This document shows, piece after piece, positions 31,886 through 43,900 of a DNA stretch of 64,000 bases; position 1 is the stretch's first letter, and each line of letters starts with the position of its first letter. This DNA comes from Candidatus Bathyarchaeia archaeon (GTDB lineage Archaea; Thermoproteota; Bathyarchaeia; Bathyarchaeales; Bathycorpusculaceae). Made by a program: the position numbers and the translations under genes. The stretch covers positions 12,543 to 76,542 of the forward strand of contig JBEKGO010000005.1 in the NCBI GenBank assembly GCA_050012755.1, given 5' to 3'. The notes below the pieces were generated by a model that was not told the DNA's origin, did no database searches, and was given only the letters and a program-made list of their open reading frames with translations.

Positions 31886-33460
31886 ATGAGCGCGCAAGAA
31901 AAACTCCAACAAGCAATCGAGGCTACAATCGCAGCGGGATACCAATTAGACAGCGAAGCTTTCGAATTCCTAAGCCAAAACTTAGACATCAATGACCCAG
32001 TTGACATAATGAATTCAGCCCTTCAGAAGCTTCAGGACCTCGAAGAAAAGCCGTTCTTCATCGACAGAGTTTTCTTAGAAACATTAGCGCAGCAGCTAAC
32101 CGCGTCAGTTATCGAAACACAAAATCAACATCAAGAGCAAAAGGCTTTTGAGCCACCTATTCAGCAGCAGATAAGCCAAATCATTACGGATGAGAACACC
32201 GCTTTTTACCCCTACGCCAGAGACATAAAATCATGCCTAACTATTCTGGAAGATGCAACCGGCAAACTAAGTTCGAACGGAACATTAGAAGAATATGTAC
32301 AGTATTTCCAAGATAGGTTCAAACGTATCGAACATTTGCTGAGGCAAAGAATTGACGTGAGAGCCGCAACATCCATACTTGAAGCGCTCAAATCCCCTCC
32401 AAAAACAAAGCTCAAAATTATTTGTATGATAACGGAAAAAAGAGAATCAAAAAACCAAATGATATTGTCAGTTGAGGATTTGCAAGGCAGCGCAACTGTT
32501 TTGGTTCCTCAAAAAGCGCAGGAAGAAGTCAAAAAAAGAGCCCTCCTTCTTTTGCCAGATCAAGTGGTCTGTTTGGCAGTGATAAAAACACGAACCAACC
32601 TTTTCCTAGCTGAAGACATTATCTTTCCAGAAATAGGCAAAAAACCTCAGCAGAGAGCCCAAGAACAAGTTTATGCTGTCTTAACTTCGGACCTTCACAT
32701 TGGCAGCAATAAGTTTGAAAAAGAAGCATTCAAGCGGTTCATATCATGGCTAAGGGGCAAATATGGAAACGAGGAAATGAAGGAAATAGCAGGAAGAGTA
32801 AAGTACGTTTTGATCGCCGGCGACATAGTTGATGGGGTTGGAATTTACCCTAACCAAGCAAAGGAATTATCTATTCGGGATGTTCATAAACAATATAATT
32901 TTGCAGCTAAATATCTGGAAAAAATTCCTGAGTACATAGAAATAGTGATTTCACCCGGGAATCATGATGCTTCACGTAAGGCTTTACCGCAGCCTGCAAT
33001 CCCAGAAGGCTATTTGACCGGAATTCAAGGGAAAAAAAATATTCATTCTGTTGGAAGCCCCTGCCTGTTGAGCCTGCATGGCGTGGAAGTTTTAATGTAT
33101 CATGGCCGAAGCTTGGATGACATAGTCGCGGTAATACCTGGAATGGATCAGGCTCACCCAGAAAAATCAATGAAACTGTTAATGCAAAGTCGGCATTTAG
33201 CGCCAGTTTACGGTGGAAAAACCATGTTATCGCCAGAGAACCGCGATTACTTAGTTATTGATAGAGTACCAGATATTTTTCACGCGGGCCATATCCACGT
33301 TTTGGGATACCTCAATTATCGTGGAGTGCTTGTTGTGAATTCAGGTGGCTGGCAAGCGCAGACTGATTACATGGAAAGATTAGGGTTGGTTCCTACCCCC
33401 GGAAAAGTGCCAGTAGTAAACCTGCAAACACTAGAAATAACTGTTCTTTCATTCATCTAA
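31886..33460 (+). CDS. polB: DNA polymerase D small subunit (DP1)
   Basis: YFQDRF, OB domain, SDLHIGS, AGDIVDGVGIYP, PGNHDA, HAGHIH, VNSGGWQAQT. Confidence 0.97.
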   Translation: MSAQEKLQQAIEATIAAGYQLDSEAFEFLSQNLDINDPVDIMNSALQKLQDLEEKPFFIDRVFLETLAQQLTASVIETQNQHQEQKAFEPPIQQQISQIITDENTAFYPYARDIKSCLTILEDATGKLSSNGTLEEYVQYFQDRFKRIEHLLRQRIDVRAATSILEALKSPPKTKLKIICMITEKRESKNQMILSVEDLQGSATVLVPQKAQEEVKKRALLLLPDQVVCLAVIKTRTNLFLAEDIIFPEIGKKPQQRAQEQVYAVLTSDLHIGSNKFEKEAFKRFISWLRGKYGNEEMKEIAGRVKYVLIAGDIVDGVGIYPNQAKELSIRDVHKQYNFAAKYLEKIPEYIEIVISPGNHDASRKALPQPAIPEGYLTGIQGKKNIHSVGSPCLLSLHGVEVLMYHGRSLDDIVAVIPGMDQAHPEKSMKLLMQSRHLAPVYGGKTMLSPENRDYLVIDRVPDIFHAGHIHVLGYLNYRGVLVVNSGGWQAQTDYMERLGLVPTPGKVPVVNLQTLEITVLSFI

Positions 33461-33490: not shown

Positions 33491-34717
33491 CTAGGTTTTT
33501 GTGTGAGTCTGTGGCGAATAGCAGATTAAACGGCTAAAGCGAGTATCGTCATTAAATACATCTCGGATCAAGCTTCTTGAGATTTCAAGTCTTATTTTTT
33601 TGGTTCTGCCGTATCTCCCCATGCTCACAACTTTGGCGTTAGCAAGTCCCATAGAATCCAACTCATTAATTAGAGTGCCCAATCGCCGTTGTGTCAGCAA
33701 CCCAGAACCCATCTCGCCGCATAATTCATTGTAAACATCGTATATTTCACCCGTTGTCGCGCTTGGTTTATTCAAGTGATAAACGCTGAGTAGAACCAAC
33801 TTAGAATGCAACGTTAAATTCTTTAGAGATTCCACTACACGATTATGTTCAATGTGTTTTTCTGCTTGACGCACATGCTCTTCCGTGACAACTTTGGCGC
33901 CTTGTCGTTCAGCCACTTCTCCAGCGACACGCAGCAAATCCAGAGCGCGCCTCGCATCACCATGCTCTGCAGCAGCCAAAGCCGAGCAAATGCTAAGTGC
34001 TGAATCAGACAAAACACCTTCTTGGAACGATAGTTTTGAGCGTTCAAGAAGAATATTTCGAAGTTCACCTGCATCATATGGCCTAAAAACCAATTCTTCC
34101 TCACTAAGAGAACTAAAAACTCTTGGATCCAAAAATTCCTTCAAACGTAGATCGTTTGATATCCCGATGATCGCGACTTTGCTTTTTGTTAAAGTTTCGT
34201 TTATCCTTGTTAATTCATACATGAAGGCATCGCCTTTATCTTTGATCAACGCATCAATTTCATCAAGAATTATGATGAAAATTATTCTGGTTGAATCTAG
34301 AGCAGTTCTAAACCTGTCGAAAACTTCACCAACTGATAATCCTGTAAAAGGTATTGGCATACCGATGTTTTGGCTTAGAGCTGCGAAAACCCGGTATTCT
34401 GAACCTGTCATTCGACAATTAATATAACAAAATTTTACTTGTGAACCGTACTCTTTTGCCTTTGATTCTAAATGACTTAAGACGTATTTTGTTACTGCTG
34501 TTTTCCCAGTACCGGTTTTTCCATAAATAAAAATGTTAGAGCATCGTGAATCTCTTAGGACTGGTGCCACAGTTTGTCCCAACAATTTTATTTGTTCTTC
34601 TCTGTGGGGTAGTTTCTCTGGAAGATAGTCGTGCCTTAGTACTTCTCTGTCTTTAAACAGCCGAACGCCATTTACGAAATTCTCAAAGACATCTTCTAAT
34701 ATGTTTTGATCCCCCAT
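33491..34717 (-). CDS. cdc6: Orc1/Cdc6 replication initiator
   Basis: YGKTGTGKT, LDEIDAL, LDPRVFSSL, HGDARRALDLLR, C-terminal wH with SMGRYGRTK. Confidence 0.97.
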   Translation of the reverse strand: MGDQNILEDVFENFVNGVRLFKDREVLRHDYLPEKLPHREEQIKLLGQTVAPVLRDSRCSNIFIYGKTGTGKTAVTKYVLSHLESKAKEYGSQVKFCYINCRMTGSEYRVFAALSQNIGMPIPFTGLSVGEVFDRFRTALDSTRIIFIIILDEIDALIKDKGDAFMYELTRINETLTKSKVAIIGISNDLRLKEFLDPRVFSSLSEEELVFRPYDAGELRNILLERSKLSFQEGVLSDSALSICSALAAAEHGDARRALDLLRVAGEVAERQGAKVVTEEHVRQAEKHIEHNRVVESLKNLTLHSKLVLLSVYHLNKPSATTGEIYDVYNELCGEMGSGLLTQRRLGTLINELDSMGLANAKVVSMGRYGRTKKIRLEISRSLIRDVFNDDTRFSRLICYSPQTHTKT

Positions 34718-34865
34718 GTGCTCATTCCATCCTTTTCAGAGGTAGAACCGTTATTTCGAGTGGAGAAGATAAAGGATGCAGTACAAAAAACTGGTTCTAT
34801 AGCACAATATTCTTTAAAAAACATGGAAAAATCAGATTACAACCAACTAAACAGAGAGCAAGCCA

Positions 34866-34887
34866 CACCCCAAAGCTTCTACTGGAA
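34866..34887 (-). promoter_or_regulatory. ORB element 1
   Basis: Minus strand TTCCAGTAGAAGCTTTGGGGTG resembles the TCCAGTGGAAAC + G-string consensus. Confidence 0.75.
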
Positions 34888-35052
34888 AAAAATAGCCAAC
34901 ATGAGAAAAGGCATTATATATTATTATTTAGTAACTATACTCTGAGTGTTAAGTGCATATATCATATATTAATAATTGCCATCCAAATTTTTAGATAAAA
35001 ATTCTGCAAATCTTTTTTTAAAGATTCCCCGACTTCTTTTTGCTCTTCAAAA

Positions 35053-35074
35053 CTCGAGAGGAAACATAGGGGTG
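35053..35074 (+). promoter_or_regulatory. ORB element 2
   Basis: CTCGAGAGGAAACATAGGGGTG. Confidence 0.7.
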
Positions 35075-35302
35075 CCTCTGCAGACATCAACGCCATGGTA
35101 AATAAGTGATAACTTAACCTTTTCTTTATCATGAGTGTTGACTTTTTTCGGGATCTGTTATCTTCAGAATTTTACAAGAGATTCTTTCTGATTTTCCATT
35201 CACAAAATTGTGAATACATGTGAAATAGCGTTAATTTTGCTGCTTAGTCACCTTCCTTTACTTCAGAATTACCTATTTCTTGTCAGTTTACTGTGAACAG
35301 CA

Positions 35303-35324
35303 CACCCCTCCGCTTCTACTGGAG
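35303..35324 (-). promoter_or_regulatory. ORB element 3
   Basis: Minus strand CTCCAGTAGAAGCGGAGGGGTG. Confidence 0.75.
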
Positions 35325-35516
35325 ATCTAGAACCAAACAAGAACTTTTGTTCTTTAGACAATCTGATTAAGTGTGAAGCTGGTAATGCCCAATAAAATGC
35401 AATACTCCCTCATTTTACCGAAACAAGCATTATGTTCATTTTTTAAGTTGTGCTGTTTCACCATAACAGCTATAAGTTGTGAAGTATAAAGCTGTGAACC
35501 CTAAGGTGCGCATCTA

Positions 35517-35948
35517 ATGCCAGCTCGTAAAATGCGTGTGGAGCTGTTCGATAGCGATGGTAATCGATATACTATTGCCTTCGAGGGTCAAGTAACCCGG
35601 GACAAAGCTCTGCGCCTTTTGGATCTTGTGGAGTTGTTGGGAGGTGCACCAAGCGAGGGGCCTACTGTAAATTCAGGTGCTGCCTTGCCCAGTCGTGTTC
35701 TTTCACGATTTGAAAAAGTTCAACTGGTAATTCAGAAGAGTTTTCCACTGGTTTGGTTTTCTTCAAGAGACATACAGTCGGTCTACGAGCAAGAGCTAAA
35801 AGAGCCTGTAGGTCTTAGTACGATTTCTACTTATCTTTCCAGGATGGCAGGCAAAGGTCTGCTTCTGAGAACTGGTGGATCAAATAATTTGAAATACAAA
35901 ACTGCGCCTAATATTCCTCAAGCCACTCTGAAGCAGCGGATAAAATAA
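35517..35948 (+). CDS. Origin-adjacent protein with C-terminal winged helix
   Basis: 143 aa; FSSRDIQSVYEQELKEPVGLSTISTYLSRMAGKGLL wHTH; small N-terminal alpha/beta domain. Confidence 0.85.
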   Translation: MPARKMRVELFDSDGNRYTIAFEGQVTRDKALRLLDLVELLGGAPSEGPTVNSGAALPSRVLSRFEKVQLVIQKSFPLVWFSSRDIQSVYEQELKEPVGLSTISTYLSRMAGKGLLLRTGGSNNLKYKTAPNIPQATLKQRIK

Positions 35949-35999
35949 AATTATTAACAGAATGATGCAAATGAATACATCTTATAATTGTTTTTCAAT

Positions 36000-36728
36000 T
36001 TATGTAGGTTGGCTGTTCTCAGGTTTCCTTAGCAGCTTTTCCATTTCTTTTTTAATACTGTAGCTGAAAGGTATTTTGCCTACTTCCCTCTCTAGGTAGC
36101 CTTCTTCATAGAGTTTCTTCATTAATCTGGCCGTGTGTTCTCTGCTAAGGCGGACTCTTTCTTTGATTTCGGGCGCTGTCTTGGGACCTTCTGAAGATAA
36201 CATTTCTAAAACTGAGATTTCTGTGTCGGTTAACGTAGCCATTGCTTTGTCCCGTCTGATTGGCATAACGGGTTCGATTCCAATCTCTGGGGCAGTAGTT
36301 AACTTTTTGATTTGGTCTTCGAAACCGGCAATCTTTATTTTTACTGTTTCCTGAGAGGCTGCTATATCTTTGATTTTCGACTCTAAACCAGTTAATCCTG
36401 AGACAATGTTTGTATTGCTCTGTGAATTAATCTGTGAAATGTTGGTAATTTGATTTTCCAAGGGGGATATTCTTTTATCTAATGTATCGACTTTTTTGAG
36501 GCTACTGTCTACCTTCGCTAAGTTTCCTTCTATTTTAAATGCTATTACGTCCAGTTTGTCGGCTTCGCGCTTTAGCTCTCGATCAAAACTGAGAACAATA
36601 TCTTCGACAATACTCTTAGCTTTCTCGTATTCTTTTTGTGCCTTGCGTACCTGTCTATAATATTCGACCGATGCCGCTACTGTGACAGCAAGCAAAACGC
36701 CTAAAAGCGCCGTTACAAAATCGACCGT
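36000..36728 (-). CDS. TM anchor - coiled coil - winged-helix protein
   Basis: Hydrophobic N-terminus VDFVTALLGVLLAVTVAASV, heptad region, LTDTEISVLEML...SREHTARLMKKLYEEGYL wHTH. ORF track starts at TTG 36695; the frame continues to ACG 36728 behind a GAGGGG SD. Confidence 0.85.
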   Translation of the reverse strand, partial: TVDFVTALLGVLLAVTVAASVEYYRQVRKAQKEYEKAKSIVEDIVLSFDRELKREADKLDVIAFKIEGNLAKVDSSLKKVDTLDKRISPLENQITNISQINSQSNTNIVSGLTGLESKIKDIAASQETVKIKIAGFEDQIKKLTTAPEIGIEPVMPIRRDKAMATLTDTEISVLEMLSSEGPKTAPEIKERVRLSREHTARLMKKLYEEGYLEREVGKIPFSYSIKKEMEKLLRKPENSQPT

Positions 36729-37024
36729 GATTTTCCCCTCTGTGATATGTTCGTGATTACACGTGATTTAGTCAGTTGCATCACACATCACAGTTATCCA
36801 TGGACTTTTTAAGGTTTGTGGTCATGTCAACGCATGTTAACTATGATGTCACACATCACATCAGATTTCTATCTTAAATAATAGTGCTAAATGTAATCAT
36901 GAAAACCCTTAATTCAGCTTATTTTGTCTTTTAAGGCTTATTCTGCGCCCTACAAACCATATCTATATGCCTCTCATCAGTGGCATTAGAAATCGTTCTT
37001 CTGTCTTGTGATTTGTGACATCAC
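36727..37024. promoter_or_regulatory. Cluster of TGTGAY/RTCACA motifs including a 17-bp inverted repeat
   Basis: GTGAT at 36727, 36742, 36753, 36763; TGATGTCACACATCACA at 36844-36860 is inverted at 37007-37023 with one mismatch. Confidence 0.6.
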
Positions 37025-37500
37025 AAGCCCTCTTCTGATGGACTAGAAAGGCGTTTTAGGCTTGTTTCAAGCTCCTGGCGTATGATTTCTATGACTTTTA
37101 GATGGTCTTTTAGCTCTTCTTCCTTCTCTGGTGTGTCTTGGTGTGCGTCGACATACTCGTGCAGTTTGTTGGCTATTTCTACATAGGGGTCAAGAGTTGT
37201 GCTATCAAACACTCCCAAATACCCTAGAAGTAGCACTGTATAAATCGATTTTATGACATTTTCCTTGGACTGTTTTAGTGTCCTATTGAAGGCTCCGCGG
37301 CTTATTTTAGCCTTAGTTAGCCGTAAGTTGGCTTTTTCATCGTACTTTAGCTGTTTGCCTGAGAAATTTTCAGCTAAAATGTCAATAAGTAGTGTTTCAA
37401 GCTGGGTTTTTGTTAATTGGCTGTTTTTAGCGAGTATCTTTGCAATGGGGTCGTTTAATGCTCCATTTAGCCAAGCTTGTACAGTGTCTTTTAGCTTCAA
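37021..37500 (-). CDS. Origin-linked HTH-like protein
   Basis: 159 aa; LTKTQLETL...ISRGAFNRTLKQSKENVIKSIYTVLLLGYLG. Confidence 0.8.
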   Translation of the reverse strand: MKLKDTVQAWLNGALNDPIAKILAKNSQLTKTQLETLLIDILAENFSGKQLKYDEKANLRLTKAKISRGAFNRTLKQSKENVIKSIYTVLLLGYLGVFDSTTLDPYVEIANKLHEYVDAHQDTPEKEEELKDHLKVIEIIRQELETSLKRLSSPSEEGL

Positions 37501-37900
37501 ATCTGTCGTTCCTCCGTATGTCTTAATGGATACGGTTTTGTATACTGTCTCATCTTTTTAAGGGTTATCCAAGCAAATCTTTTGCGTTTAGCCACTATTA
37601 ACTCATCAAATATGCCTTAAAATGCAAGAATAAGGCAAATGGGCAGATTTTATAGCATTTAACGCCTGATAAGACGCAATTAACAAATAGATGGCAATAT
37701 TATTGGACCTTTAGTTCGAAACTATTTATTAATTTTAAACAAACATTACAGTTCTAATCGTCTGTTCAAAGTTTTTCTTGTCTGTGTTTTAGCGGTTTTG
37801 CCTCTTTCTTTTTTCTGGAACACACTTATTTGGCATTGATCGCTTTAGCTCGGTCCACGATTCCGAATAATAAATCCAAGAAGATGGCTTAAGAGAGGCT

Positions 37901-37995
37901 TTGTGACGTCACCAGTCACGTTGAAATCACAGTGATTTGTCATGAAGCAGCCTTGATATCACAGCTTGTGATAAGGTTGTGATGCCTTTGTGATT
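37901..37995. promoter_or_regulatory. Second TGTGAY motif cluster
   Basis: GTGA at 37903, 37932, 37968, 37979, 37990 (last three 11 bp apart) plus TCAC copies. Confidence 0.55.
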
Positions 37996-38019
37996 CTAAT
38001 TCCTATCTGGTCTTGTCGC

Positions 38020-38871
38020 TTAGAGAAGCTCTGAGTACTCTTTTAATTTGTCAAACAGTTCGGGTCGTAAATCTCTCAATGTGGGGATAAAGGTTTCAGC
38101 TGTTCTCAGATCTCCGTAATCTACTTCGCATATGACAAGGTCTTCTTCATCATACTTTGCTTTGGCAAGAATATCTCCAGATGGGCTAACTAACCTGCTT
38201 CCTCCCCAAAATTGCAGTCCATCTTGGACTCCGACCAGGTTTACGTAGGCAAGATAAGCGGTATTTTCAATTGCTCTTGCGCAAGTTAATATTTCAAAGT
38301 AGCTTCGGCGCACTGCGGGAGATGCTGATATGCAGACAATTAGTTGTGCTCCCTTCAAACGGGTTAGTCTGAGGACTTCTGGAAAGAAAATATCGTAACA
38401 GATGCACAGACCAATGTTGCCTAAATCTGTTTGAAACGCTGCTGCTTGATAACCTGGACGGAAATACCTTTTTTCTTCGAAAACACTGTGCGTTGGCAAG
38501 TACATTTTACGGTATTTGCCGATTAAACCTTTTGGACCAACCAAGACAGCAGTGTTAAAAACTGTTGCTTGTGTTTTCTCGCTTAACTCAGGCATTCCAA
38601 AAATAACATGCATGCCCGTTTTCTTTGCCAACTTCTCAACTTTCTCCACAGTTGGTCCGGGAATAGTTTCCGCTAACTCGTAAAATTGGTCCCTAATCAC
38701 ATAACCAGATACTGAAAGTTCAGGAAAGATAGCAAGATCTGCACCTTGCTCCTTTGCTTTGAGAGTTATTGCCTCGATTTTTTGAAAATTTCCTTCTTTG
38801 TTTTCGCGGTTACTGCTTATTTGGGCAAGGGCAAGTTTGATTTTATCTTTCATGTGTTTTCCACTTTTCAA
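38020..38871 (-). CDS. Carbon-nitrogen hydrolase (nitrilase family)
   Basis: E-K-C triad: IFPELS, YRKMYLP, ICYD; overlaps the nadE stop. Confidence 0.9.
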   Translation of the reverse strand: MKSGKHMKDKIKLALAQISSNRENKEGNFQKIEAITLKAKEQGADLAIFPELSVSGYVIRDQFYELAETIPGPTVEKVEKLAKKTGMHVIFGMPELSEKTQATVFNTAVLVGPKGLIGKYRKMYLPTHSVFEEKRYFRPGYQAAAFQTDLGNIGLCICYDIFFPEVLRLTRLKGAQLIVCISASPAVRRSYFEILTCARAIENTAYLAYVNLVGVQDGLQFWGGSRLVSPSGDILAKAKYDEEDLVICEVDYGDLRTAETFIPTLRDLRPELFDKLKEYSELL

Positions 38872-40937: not shown

Positions 40938-43900
40938 TTGAACATTAGCAAAGGCTATCAAAATTACGTTGAAACAATGGAAAAAACACTGAAGCAACTA
41001 TATGCGATAAGCGATAGCGCCAGATCAAAAGGCTTAGATCCATCTTTGAAAACGGAATGCATCATCGCGCAAGACATCGCTGACTTAGTAGAAGGCTTAG
41101 TTGGTCCAAAAAATGTAGCTCTCAGCATAAGAGACTTAAGCACCAAAATTCCAAGAGAAGAAATCGCGTTTAGAGTTGCAGAAGAAATCGTTCTAGGAAA
41201 ATTCGGTAGCATGGACCCTGAAAGGGCTGCTGAACAGGCGATTCGAACAGCTCTTGCAATTTTCACTGAAGGCTTGACTGCCGCACCGATTCAGGGCGTA
41301 GCCGAAGTCAAGATAAAAACTAACGCCGATAGGACGCGCTACTTGGCGATATATTTTGCAGGGCCAATCAGGTCGGCAGGCGGAACAGACCAGGCGCTAA
41401 CTTTGGTTGTGGGCGACTTTGTACGTCGTCAGCTTGGTCTTGATAAGTATAAGCCTACCGATGAAGAGGTTTCCCGTTTTATTGAAGAATTAAGGTTATA
41501 TGAACGATCGGTTGGTCGTTTTCAATATCACATTCCTGATGAAGAATTGAAGAAAGCACTGAACCTGATTCCAGTTGAATGCACCGGCACAGAATCCGAC
41601 CCTGTAGAAGTCTCTTCCTACAGAAACCTACCAAGAGTAGAAACAAATCGTGTTAGAGGAGGCGCACTCAGAGTAGTTAACGATGGCATCGTTGGGCGAG
41701 CGCAAAAAGTGTCCGTCATCATTGACAAGATTGGTTTTCAAGGCTGGGATTGGCTAAAGGAATTCAAAAAGAAATCAGAGAAGAAATCAGGCGGGTTTAT
41801 GGACGATGTGATTGCGGGTCGTCCAATATTTGCTTTTCCATCGCGACGAGGCGGCTTCAGGTTAAGGTATGGCCGATCACGGAACACGGGTCTCTCCGCC
41901 GTAGGAATCCATCCTGCAACAATGCATGTGCTAGAGAATTTTCTAGCAGCTGGAACGCAGATGCGTTTAGAGCTTCCAGGGAAAGGTTGTGTTACTCTTC
42001 CAGTAGATGCTATCGAGCCCCCTGTTGTTTTGTTAAAGGATAACTCGGTAGTTCGAGTGACTTTAGAAAATTTTGGTGAAGTTAAAGGTAAAATCCAAAA
42101 AATCCTTTTTCTAGGCGACATTCTGATTAGTTTTGGAGATTTTCTTTATTCTAACAAAACGCTTCCACCATCAGGGTACGTTGAGGAATGGTGGGCTAAG
42201 GATGTTCAGAGAGCTGTTGAACAAAAATTTGGCTCAGACTGTCGGAAGGCGGCAGATGATATTCAAATTTCTTTATCGCGATTAAACGGTTTTGTAGCTG
42301 ACCCTTTTAGTAATAAACCTACGCTTAGGGAGGCAGTGCTTCTCAGCTTGCATTTAGGCGTGCCTTTGCACCCAAGTTACCTGTTCTTTTGGTCAAGCTT
42401 ATGTGATGTTCAAGAGGTTGAACTGCTGAGAAAGTGGTTGGCTTCTGGTGAGGTTTTGATCGAAGATGGTATTGTTAATAAAATTTCATGTGATGTTAAA
42501 GAAGACGTTACGAGTCTGTTGAGAAAAATCCTTGTTCCCCACAAGATAACTGGTGGAAAGATTTTGTTGCAAGGCGAAGCTGCAGGTGCTTTAGCGCTGT
42601 GTCTGGGTCTTGGTAAAACCATTGACATCGCTCAAGCAATGACTGTGCTGGAAGCAGTCAGTGCGCTTTCGGGTGTGCAGGTTAAAGATAAAGCACCAAC
42701 TTATGTAGGTGGACGCATGGGGCGTCCGGAGAAAGCCAAAAGACGCGATATGAGGCCACCTGTTCATGTCCTTTTCCCAGTTAGCCTGGCTGGCGGAATG
42801 CATAGAGATCTCTTGGAAGCGGCAAAGCAGGGTCCTGTGTTTGTTGAAATGGTTAAGCGTAAGTGTCCAAACTGCAAAAATTACACTTTAAGGGTCAAAT
42901 GCTCCAACTGCGGATGCAACACTGTTGCGGAAAGTTGTTGCCCTCGCTGTGGAAGAACTTTAAAAGATAACAGTTGCCTCACTTGCAAGACTGATGCTGT
43001 TCAGTACCAGCGACAACCTGTTAACTTTAAAGACATCATTGGTGACGCCTGCAAATCTCTTGGTTATCCAGCTCCCAAAATGCTAAGAGGCGTTAAAGGC
43101 TTAACTAACAAGGATAAGACTCCGGAAATTATCGAAAAAGGTATTTTGCGGGCAAAATATGATTTATCAGTTTACAAGGATGGCACAATCCGCTTTGATG
43201 CTACCAACGCTCCTTTAACACATTTTACTCCTGCCGAAGTTGGCGTGTCCGTTGAAAAAATAAGACAGTTAGGCTATTGCTCTGATACACATGGCGCAAG
43301 CTTAACTGATCCTGATCAAGTCTGTGAGCTCAAAGTTCAAGATATTGTAATTCCATGGCGAGCAGGAGATTATTTTATTCAGATCGCAGCTTTTATTGAC
43401 GATTTGCTAGTCAGAGTTTACAAACTTCCAGCTTACTACAACGTCCAGAAGCCTGAAGACCTTGTTGGGCATCTGGTTTTTGGTTTAGCGCCCCACACCT
43501 GTGCTTGTATTCTGGGGCGCGTCGTTGGTTACACTGATCGTAACGTGATTTACGCCCACCCTATATGGCACTCAGCCAAACGCCGAGACTGCGACGGCGA
43601 TGAAGACGCGATTATGTTAGCCTTAGATACCCTTGTAAATTTCTCCAATGTTTATTTGCCTGCTCAAATTGGCGGAATAATGGATGCCCCCATACTTCTA
43701 ATTCCGTTTGTTAACACCAGGGAAGTTCAAAGGCAAGCTCACGATTTTGATGTTGACGCGACATATCCTCTTGAGTTCTACCAAAAAACTTGGGATAAAG
43801 GAGAAGCTAAACACGTGAGCTCAATTATGGATGTTATCAGTCATAGGCTTGGGACTGAAGCGCAGTTTGAAGGCTTCCAATATACTACACCTGTGACAAA

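Follow-up and report, generated by a model that had tools for sequence, protein, structure and literature searches.

A conserved trio of putative DNA-binding regulators and their candidate operator boxes beside a predicted archaeal replication origin

Which protein reads the dense TGTGA-type boxes that crowd a predicted replication origin of an uncultured peat archaeon (Bathyarchaeia), and do these boxes serve the origin or the genes beside it? The boxes lie in a 64 kb stretch of contig JBEKGO010000005.1, hereafter the window, where the orc1/cdc6 initiator gene (33491–34717, minus strand) is followed by a 799 bp intergenic gap with the predicted oriC (34718–35516) and then by three small genes, here called p143 (35517–35948, plus strand), p231 (36000–36695, minus strand, as listed by the open reading frame (ORF) finder) and p159 (37021–37500, minus strand). 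Further gaps separate p231 from p159 (325 bp) and extend past p159 (519 bp). A preliminary description of this DNA had proposed that the three proteins bind the TGTGA boxes and thereby modulate initiation or organise the origin. We found that the boxes are real, enriched and conserved, that the trio is linked to cdc6 and oriC across classes, and that the GTGAA boxes travel with genes of the p143 family. The explanation we favour, and consider probable although far from certain, is that the trio comprises undescribed, deeply conserved DNA-binding regulators flanking an origin of the origin recognition box (ORB) type, with the short boxes as their operators. In our literature search, neither the trio nor GTGAA boxes at origins of this kind were described; what is new is that winged-helix regulators and their operators, elements of a known kind, are found in a conserved, undescribed and origin-embedded arrangement.

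All box positions given in the preliminary description were reproduced, with TGTGAA at 35209, 35219, 35292, 35372, 35478 and 35493 and TTCACA at 35199. Around the other two genes, TGTGAY/RTCACA occurs at 36741, 36780, 36787, 36848, 36855, 37007, 37014 and 37020 on the p231 side and at 37902, 37926, 37958, 37967, 37978 and 37989 in a distal cluster. The 10–11 bp steps ascribed to the TGTGAY clusters are present in the last three of these boxes (37967, 37978 and 37989), which are spaced 11 bp apart, and a step of 10 bp separates the TGTGAA boxes at 35209 and 35219. Likewise present is the 17 bp inverted repeat, at 36844–36860 and 37007–37023 (repeat I9; 94% complementary). To judge enrichment, each region was simulated with a first-order Markov model in 5000 trials. 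The 327 bp from 35190 to 35516 hold 7 TGTGAA/TTCACA (simulated mean 0.37), the 325 bp from 36696 to 37020 hold 10 GTGAY (mean 1.75) and the 106 bp from 37895 to 38000 hold 9 GTGAY (mean 1.02). Enrichment over background, on which the earlier proposal hinged, is strong, as none of the 5000 simulations reached the observed count in any region. No other 300 bp windows of the 64 kb stretch are as dense in either motif, and TGTGAA is not enriched elsewhere in the window (36 observed, about 40 expected from composition).

The same picture emerged among relatives. Across 70 related loci, the three gaps contain TGTGA at 8.6, 23.9 and 10.1 per kb, compared with 1.44 per kb elsewhere, and alignments of the gaps from 67–71 species show the boxes as invariant islands amid drifting DNA. 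A palindrome of the form TTCAC-N6-GTGAA was found in every one of the 71 close loci, whereas 806 kb of their flanking DNA hold it just twice. Since the motifs are merely 5–6 nt long, one might attribute their clustering to chance or to the composition of AT-rich intergenic DNA. This explanation, to which we assign practically no probability, is refuted by the simulations, by the invariance of the boxes in about 70 species while adjacent bases vary, and by the contrast between the palindrome's presence in every close locus and its two occurrences in the flanks.

The boxes fall into two motif classes, with GTGAA confined to the rightmost 330 bp of the gap with oriC and GTGAT/GTGAC confined to the surroundings of p231 and p159. 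The GTGAA class begins with a distal site (35199–35224) that combines the palindrome TTCAC-AAAATT-GTGAA (35199–35214) with a third box, TGTGAA, at 35219; its consensus in close loci is TTCACAAAAtTGTGAA-TACA-TGTGAA. A single box on the plus strand (35292–35297) lies 4 nt from the C-string of an ORB-like element, ORB2 (35301–35336), and (A/T)GTGAA is kept 4–5 nt ahead of this C-string (CACCCC) in close loci and also in two distant ones, L084 and L086. Next comes the conserved plus-strand box TGTGAAGCTGG (35372–35385; consensus TGTGAAGCTgG). The last sites lie in the putative p143 promoter region (35458–35509, plus strand), which we place by archaeal TATA and transcription factor B recognition element geometry and which comprises TTCACC at 35458, a TATA-like CTATAAG at 35471–35477 and a GGTG Shine–Dalgarno sequence at 35506–35509. 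Here, two GTGAA boxes (35478 and 35493) stand 15 bp apart between the TATA-like element and the ribosome-binding site, which would be the usual position for an archaeal repressor, and the block is near-invariant in close loci (TTCACCATAACAGCTATAAGnTGTGAAG..TAAAG.TGTGAAC..GGTG..ATG). All GTGAA boxes are located outside the AT-rich core of the predicted origin, toward and over the p143 promoter.

A comparison with paralogues bears directly on the ownership of these boxes. In two distant loci, L083 and L085 (one of them labelled Archaeoglobi), a p143 paralogue sits among arginine-biosynthesis and tRNA-modification genes, with no cdc6, ORB, p231 or p159 nearby. Even so, the gaps of about 430 bp upstream of these paralogues contain 9 GTGAA/TTCAC, or about 21 per kb compared with about 3 per kb across the remainder of the locus (Poisson P ~1e-5). 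Among them are a palindrome of the TTCAC-N6-GTGAA form, some 380 bp upstream, and boxes just ahead of the start codon. A p143-family gene directly downstream is the sole factor common to all box arrays, which supports p143 as the GTGAA binder; conversely, arrays that occur without cdc6, ORB, p231 or p159 argue against Orc1, p231 or p159 in this role. As far as sequence can tell, the comparison shows that the distal palindrome and the proximal boxes belong to the p143 gene's own control region and not to the origin as such. Bathyarchaeia and their relatives stand out in having this control region fused to the right half of oriC.

The paralogues also weigh on the idea that the boxes belong to some other factor, either as an extension of the Orc1/Cdc6 site or as the target of a general nucleoid protein, with the trio as unrelated neighbours. 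That one GTGAA box is contiguous with ORB2 speaks for this idea, as does the fact that proteins and boxes were paired by comparison. However, most boxes lie 50–200 bp from any ORB, while ORB1 and two inverted ORBs lack an adjoining GTGAA, and the boxes at L083 and L085 accompany a p143 paralogue where neither cdc6 nor an ORB exists. The missing enrichment of TGTGAA elsewhere is, at the scale of the 64 kb window, unlike what a general nucleoid-protein site would show. We therefore regard another owner of the boxes as quite improbable.

What kind of protein would bind them? Both p143 and p159 have approximately 3000 close homologues, all annotated as 'hypothetical protein' and found in Bathyarchaeia metagenome-assembled genomes. 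Identity in close loci amounts to 73–92% for p143 and 79–94% for p159, which is about level with Cdc6, and to 47–87% for p231. AlphaFold2 modelling of p143 with 20 orthologues gave a mean predicted local distance difference test (pLDDT) score of 66, rising to 75–86 over the C-terminal winged helix. In this model a beta-beta-alpha N-terminal domain (residues ~5–42), which appears to be new, is joined by a disordered linker to the predicted winged helix (~64–129). Foldseek ranked winged helices of the MecI/BlaI, Fur/Zur, RosR and ArsR types first (E ~3e-3). The Pfam family Penicillinase_R (PF03965) scored 14.4 bits against a cut-off of 22.6, with no other Pfam or NCBIfam assignment; the same family exceeds its cut-off in a distant homologue (L081; 23.3 bits), and several database homologues hold a precomputed PF03965 match. 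No PDB sequence matched in profile searches with p143 and p159. With 372 clusters at 50% identity in a profile search of 1.8 billion representatives, the p143 family is sizeable. A helix of the form LSTxSTYLxRL, the putative recognition helix, is nearly invariant across it.

The best fold match suggests a comparison with BlaI and MecI, dimeric repressors that act on inverted repeats at their own promoters, as p143 may do. The likeness is partial: in BlaI/MecI proteins the winged helix is N-terminal and is followed by a helical domain for dimerisation and cleavage at the C-terminus, whereas the p143 model has the reverse order, and p143 has no protease-sensor partner. The WhiP initiator of Sulfolobus, to which the earlier account had likened the system, is not a match, since p143 is predicted to have a single winged helix in place of a WhiP/Cdt1-like tandem and its top 50 fold matches are of the MecI/BlaI, Fur/Zur, RosR and ArsR types.

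In the mechanism we propose, p143 would act as a dimeric winged-helix protein that recognises GTGAA half-sites, its targets being the distal palindrome with its extra box, the single boxes, and the pair between its own TATA element and ribosome-binding site. The half-sites of the palindrome are 11 bp apart from centre to centre, which fits a winged-helix dimer on one face of the DNA, and the near-invariant LSTxSTYLxRL helix matches the invariant GTGAA core, which we count in favour of binding by p143. p143 would thereby repress its own gene, perhaps through a DNA loop of about 290 bp. ORB2 would then lie inside the putative loop between distal and proximal sites, 4 nt from a GTGAA box. In the same scheme, p231 and/or p159 would bind the GTGAY sites of the p231 promoter, the p159 3′ end and the distal cluster, and through them control the p231 and p159 promoters, so that the module as a whole would form a conserved origin-flanking regulatory unit.

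Of these two proteins, p231 is the more readily classified. It consists of an N-terminal transmembrane helix, a coiled coil of about 100 amino acids and a C-terminal winged helix of the MarR/TrmB type, which passes the Pfam cut-offs for both MarR (PF01047; 32.5 bits, cut-off 24.6) and TrmB (PF01978; 27.1 bits, cut-off 25.6). It resembles archaeal regulators of these families in its winged helix and departs from them in its membrane anchor and long coiled coil, having neither a sugar-binding nor a MarR dimerisation domain; typical MarR proteins are soluble, about 150 amino acids long, and carry dimerisation helices around the winged helix. The start of p231 is very probably a non-canonical ACG codon (36726–36728), 33 nt upstream of the TTG chosen by the ORF finder, giving a gene at 36000–36728 and a protein of about 242 amino acids. 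At this position, ACG is found in 58 of 69 loci and ATG in 5. The upstream extension (ITVDFVTALLGV; (I)TVDFVTALLGV) completes the transmembrane helix and is conserved at the protein level with synonymous variation; in-frame stops occur 1–2 codons upstream of the ACG in 15 loci, and the annotated TTG position is a Leu codon (TTA/CTA/CTG) in most. A GGGG-type Shine–Dalgarno sequence precedes the ACG by about 7 nt, and the ACG itself overlaps a CGTGAT box on the opposite strand.

For p159, the low-confidence model is all-alpha and no fold could be assigned, despite a mean column identity of 91% across relatives. Neither p159 nor four of its distant orthologues matched any Pfam or NCBIfam family, and a fold search returned only noise (best E 0.96). 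Its putative helix-turn-helix derives solely from a pattern resembling sigma region 4 (ISRGAFNRTLKQSKENVIKSI). The earlier description of three helix-turn-helix genes thus holds for the winged helices of p143 and p231, while for p159 it comes down to this sequence pattern.

The GTGAY sites line the promoters and ends of these two genes. Around the p231 start and promoter, CGTGAT boxes occur at ~36726, 36753 and 36763 and a single TGTGAT at 36741. A tandem with a 7 bp step (ATCACACATCACA; 36780–36792) sits immediately downstream from a TATA-like CTTAAAAAG on the minus strand (~36806–36814), and a second such tandem (GTCACACATCACA) spans 36848–36860. The inverted-repeat partner of 36844–36860 falls in TGTGATTTGTGACATCACA (37007–37025), which overlaps the p159 stop and includes an invariant cTGTGATTTGTGACG; the alignment of close loci shows a conserved TGTGATTTGTGAC at this stop. 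The distal cluster (37902–37994) contains GTGACGTCAC (37903–37912), ATCACAGTGAT (37926–37936), TATCACAGCTTGTGATA (37957–37973) and TGTGAT at 37978 and 37989, and its palindromes include GTGACGTCAC, ATCAC-A-GTGAT and TATCAC-N5-GTGATA. The last of these, at 37957–37973, has a form that we take to be that of the Thermococcales glycolytic motif (TGM), bound by TrmBL1/Tgr, and we treat it as a lead only. In L082 and L086, too, GTGAY palindromes precede the p231 homologue.

p159 seems to have a promoter element of its own. We read the minus-strand region 37528–37563 as its promoter, given a conserved palindrome ATAC-N6-GTAT (37531–37544) beside a TATA-like CTTAAAAAG; the consensus is AATGgATACagTTTTGTATAC ... 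TTTTTAA. This palindrome is unlike GTGAA and GTGAY, so a different conserved promoter element is found at each of the three genes. Between it and the distal cluster, about 330 bp (37570–37895) are poorly conserved, yet the total gap stays at about 505 bp in some 70 species; we found no Rfam match there and no ORF that accounts for the stretch.

How far does the arrangement extend, and does it concern the origin? We assembled 80 species-level close loci by genome scan and searched their neighbourhoods with tblastn. The whole block from the small to the large subunit of DNA polymerase D (PolD) is syntenic in these loci, with cdc6 in 79, p231 in 78 and p159 in 76 of 80. For more distant relatives, we built a profile from p143 relatives of 25–40% identity, searched a large protein collection and examined the contigs of eleven hits. 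In nine of the eleven, the p143 homologue diverges from cdc6 over a 500–740 bp gap with ORB boxes; the submitters had labelled these nine contigs Bathyarchaeia, Nitrososphaerales/Thaumarchaeota or Odinarchaeia, and the labels are used as submitted. The order cdc6, gap, p143 homologue (plus), p231 homologue (minus), p159 homologue (minus) is seen in L081, L082 and L086–L091, and L084 lacks the p231 homologue; for five distant loci, phmmer confirmed the orthology of p231 and p159 (E 1e-14 to 1e-46). A conserved linkage to cdc6, which the earlier proposal also presupposed, was thus borne out at both depths. GTGAA/TTCAC is enriched 3- to 8-fold upstream of the p143 homologue in the distant loci, where promoter-proximal tandem boxes recur. 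The TTCAC-N6-GTGAA palindrome is also present in L083, L085 and L086 (N5 form in L084), and L086 repeats both the palindrome and the placement of GTGAA beside an ORB.

The first gap itself is laid out like an archaeal origin of the ORB type and is treated here as a predicted one. It adjoins orc1/cdc6 and contains four ORB-like boxes (C-string plus TTCCA-TGGA-like dyad) in alternating orientation: two on the plus strand (34864–34899 and ORB2, together forming direct repeat D2) and two inverted (~34735–34770 and ~35055–35085). An AT-rich stretch at ~34900–35050 is bracketed by an inverted pair of ORBs. An alignment of the gap across 69 species shows near-invariant ORB cores. The same ORB architecture is found in the distant loci L084 and L086, and the core TTTCCAnTGGAAA is clearer in L082, L084 and L086.

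Several observations weigh against our explanation. The AlphaFold2 models are of moderate confidence (pLDDT 66 and 61). The spacing and orientation of GTGAY half-sites are variable (spacers of 0, 1 and 5 nt; tandems of 7 and 11 bp), which would be unusual for one rigid dimer, so that the binder could be p231, p159 or both; moreover, GTGAY boxes are not evident in Nitrososphaeria-type loci. The GTGAA enrichment is weak in L081, L087, L088 and L090 (P 0.01–0.06, or fewer boxes). Finally, autoregulation alone does not explain why the trio is retained exactly at oriC across classes.

This last point leads to the principal alternative, in which the trio acts on the origin. Here, p143 bound to GTGAA would directly modulate Orc1 binding or the loading or egress of MCM, in the way of the protein UBP at the ucm motif in Sulfolobus, while membrane-anchored p231, together with p159, would bind the GTGAY arrays, 1.2–2.8 kb from the origin, and so keep the origin region at the membrane to position or segregate it, with autoregulation as a side effect. 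Put more broadly, the trio might be a shared accessory layer of the oriC1-type origin in Bathyarchaeia, Nitrososphaeria and some Asgard-labelled archaea, with p143 as a replication–transcription feedback switch, in which Orc1 occupancy or MCM loading is tied to transcription of p143 itself, and p231/p159 as a membrane fastening of the GTGAY arrays that positions or segregates the origin without a ParA motor. In favour of such a role, the trio stays by cdc6 and oriC on Bathyarchaeia, Nitrososphaerales/Thaumarchaeota- and Odin-labelled contigs, a GTGAA box abuts ORB2 in the close loci, L084 and L086, and the build of p231, with membrane anchor, long coiled coil and DNA-binding head, suits tethering. 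On the other side, the box architecture is repeated at a p143 paralogue away from any origin, the GTGAA boxes all lie outside the AT-rich unwinding region, and the gene tables of the window and the distant loci show no ParA/SegA-type or other NTPase in the block. In addition, the entire island from polD through cdc6 to polD is syntenic, so that linkage is not specific to the trio. Taken together, we judge an origin role unlikely in either wording, though considerably less so than a foreign owner of the boxes. Of the proposal with which we began, binding of GTGAA by p143 has gained comparative support (the palindrome in 71 of 71 loci and the paralogues), while the part that invoked initiation or origin organisation has lost ground, with the arrays tracking the p143 gene.

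Known systems offer both precedent and caution here. At Sulfolobales and Desulfurococcales origins, the essential non-initiator protein UBP binds the ucm motif (Dhanaraju et al. 2025, PMC12141716). In concept this is a precedent for a sequence-specific DNA-binding protein other than the initiator acting on a short conserved motif beside ORBs. The differences are considerable: UBP folds as a beta-hairpin saddle as described in that work, whereas p143 is modelled as a winged helix with a beta-beta-alpha N-terminal domain; ucm lies inside the unwinding element, the GTGAA boxes outside it on the p143 side, reaching over the p143 promoter; UBP has hundreds of genomic sites, and TGTGAA is not enriched elsewhere in this window; and UBP is not encoded at the origin, which the p143 gene adjoins. 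We therefore rejected p143 as a UBP, given the different fold and the placement of the boxes outside the AT-rich core. The haloarchaeal oapABC cluster (now arvABC) resembles the trio as a small cluster conserved beside oriC1/orc1 across a whole class. Its products (a small GTPase, a DUF2073 protein and a zinc ribbon protein) are unrelated to the trio, and they function in vesicle formation, not replication (PMC10927574). This case, in which OapA turned out to be a vesicle-forming GTPase, warns against reading function from origin synteny and counts against an origin role of the trio.

The earlier analogy with segregation systems fared no better than that with WhiP. Both SegAB of Sulfolobus and AspA-ParB-ParA of pNOB8 rely on site-specific DNA-binding proteins whose short sites, repeated or palindromic, lie close to the genes that encode them, and AspA appears among the weak fold matches of p143 (rank 48). 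However, we found no ParA/SegA Walker-type ATPase between the genes for the small and large PolD subunits or in the gene tables of the distant loci, and no SegB homology; with no such ATPase in the block, the system is not SegAB.

Factors that act at archaeal origins besides Orc1 are, to our knowledge, hardly described except in Sulfolobales and a few euryarchaea, and we know of no account of how origin firing is tied to the cell cycle in the lineages to which the ammonia oxidisers and the Bathyarchaeia abundant in sediment and peat belong. The module offers an entry point, with three small, expressible proteins (two of them without family assignment) and defined 5–6 bp sites that interleave with the initiator boxes on the DNA and are kept across classes. 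Should the proteins be autoregulators only, they would represent a new family of transcription factors whose operator is defined. Should they act on the origin, they would provide a second example of an archaeal origin accessory factor after UBP and a first candidate for the membrane tethering of an archaeal origin.

The PolD small subunit (31886–33460, plus strand) precedes the initiator gene, the PolD large subunit begins at 40938 (plus strand; both by ORF listing and domain scans), and genes for a CN-hydrolase and an NAD synthetase (minus strand) lie beyond the 519 bp gap. The initiator itself has 408 amino acids and was identified as an NCBIfam ORC1-type replication protein (E 2.8e-150) with the Pfam domains Cdc6_lid and Cdc6_C. 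GC skew across the 64 kb window was uninformative on the origin, an Rfam scan of 34500–38200 gave no match, and a scan for bacterial-type promoters and terminators gave hits at chance level only. A search for RNA sequencing runs that contain this DNA returned none.

In the Nitrososphaeria-type loci (L081, 5352–5402; L087; L088; L089–L091), the convergent 3′ ends of p143 and p231 overlap by about 15–55 nt, and p159 and p231 abut or overlap as a tight operon. The island is strictly conserved there, comprising LipA, NUDIX, PolD-small, cdc6, the trio, Elf1, PcrB and PolD-large. Within the inspected group L089–L091, L090 has fewer GTGAA and some TTAAC/GTCAA words, which are too thin to call a covariation of motif and protein. 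In some Bathyarchaeia, by contrast, a co-directional insert of two genes stands between the p143 homologue and p231 (L019, 6515–9050; L032; L037; L066; L075; L086, 5481–8001). It encodes a protein of 330–340 amino acids, with a faint NurA match in L086, and a HerA/DUF87 ATPase, which suggests that p143 may head a DNA-end-resection operon in those lineages.

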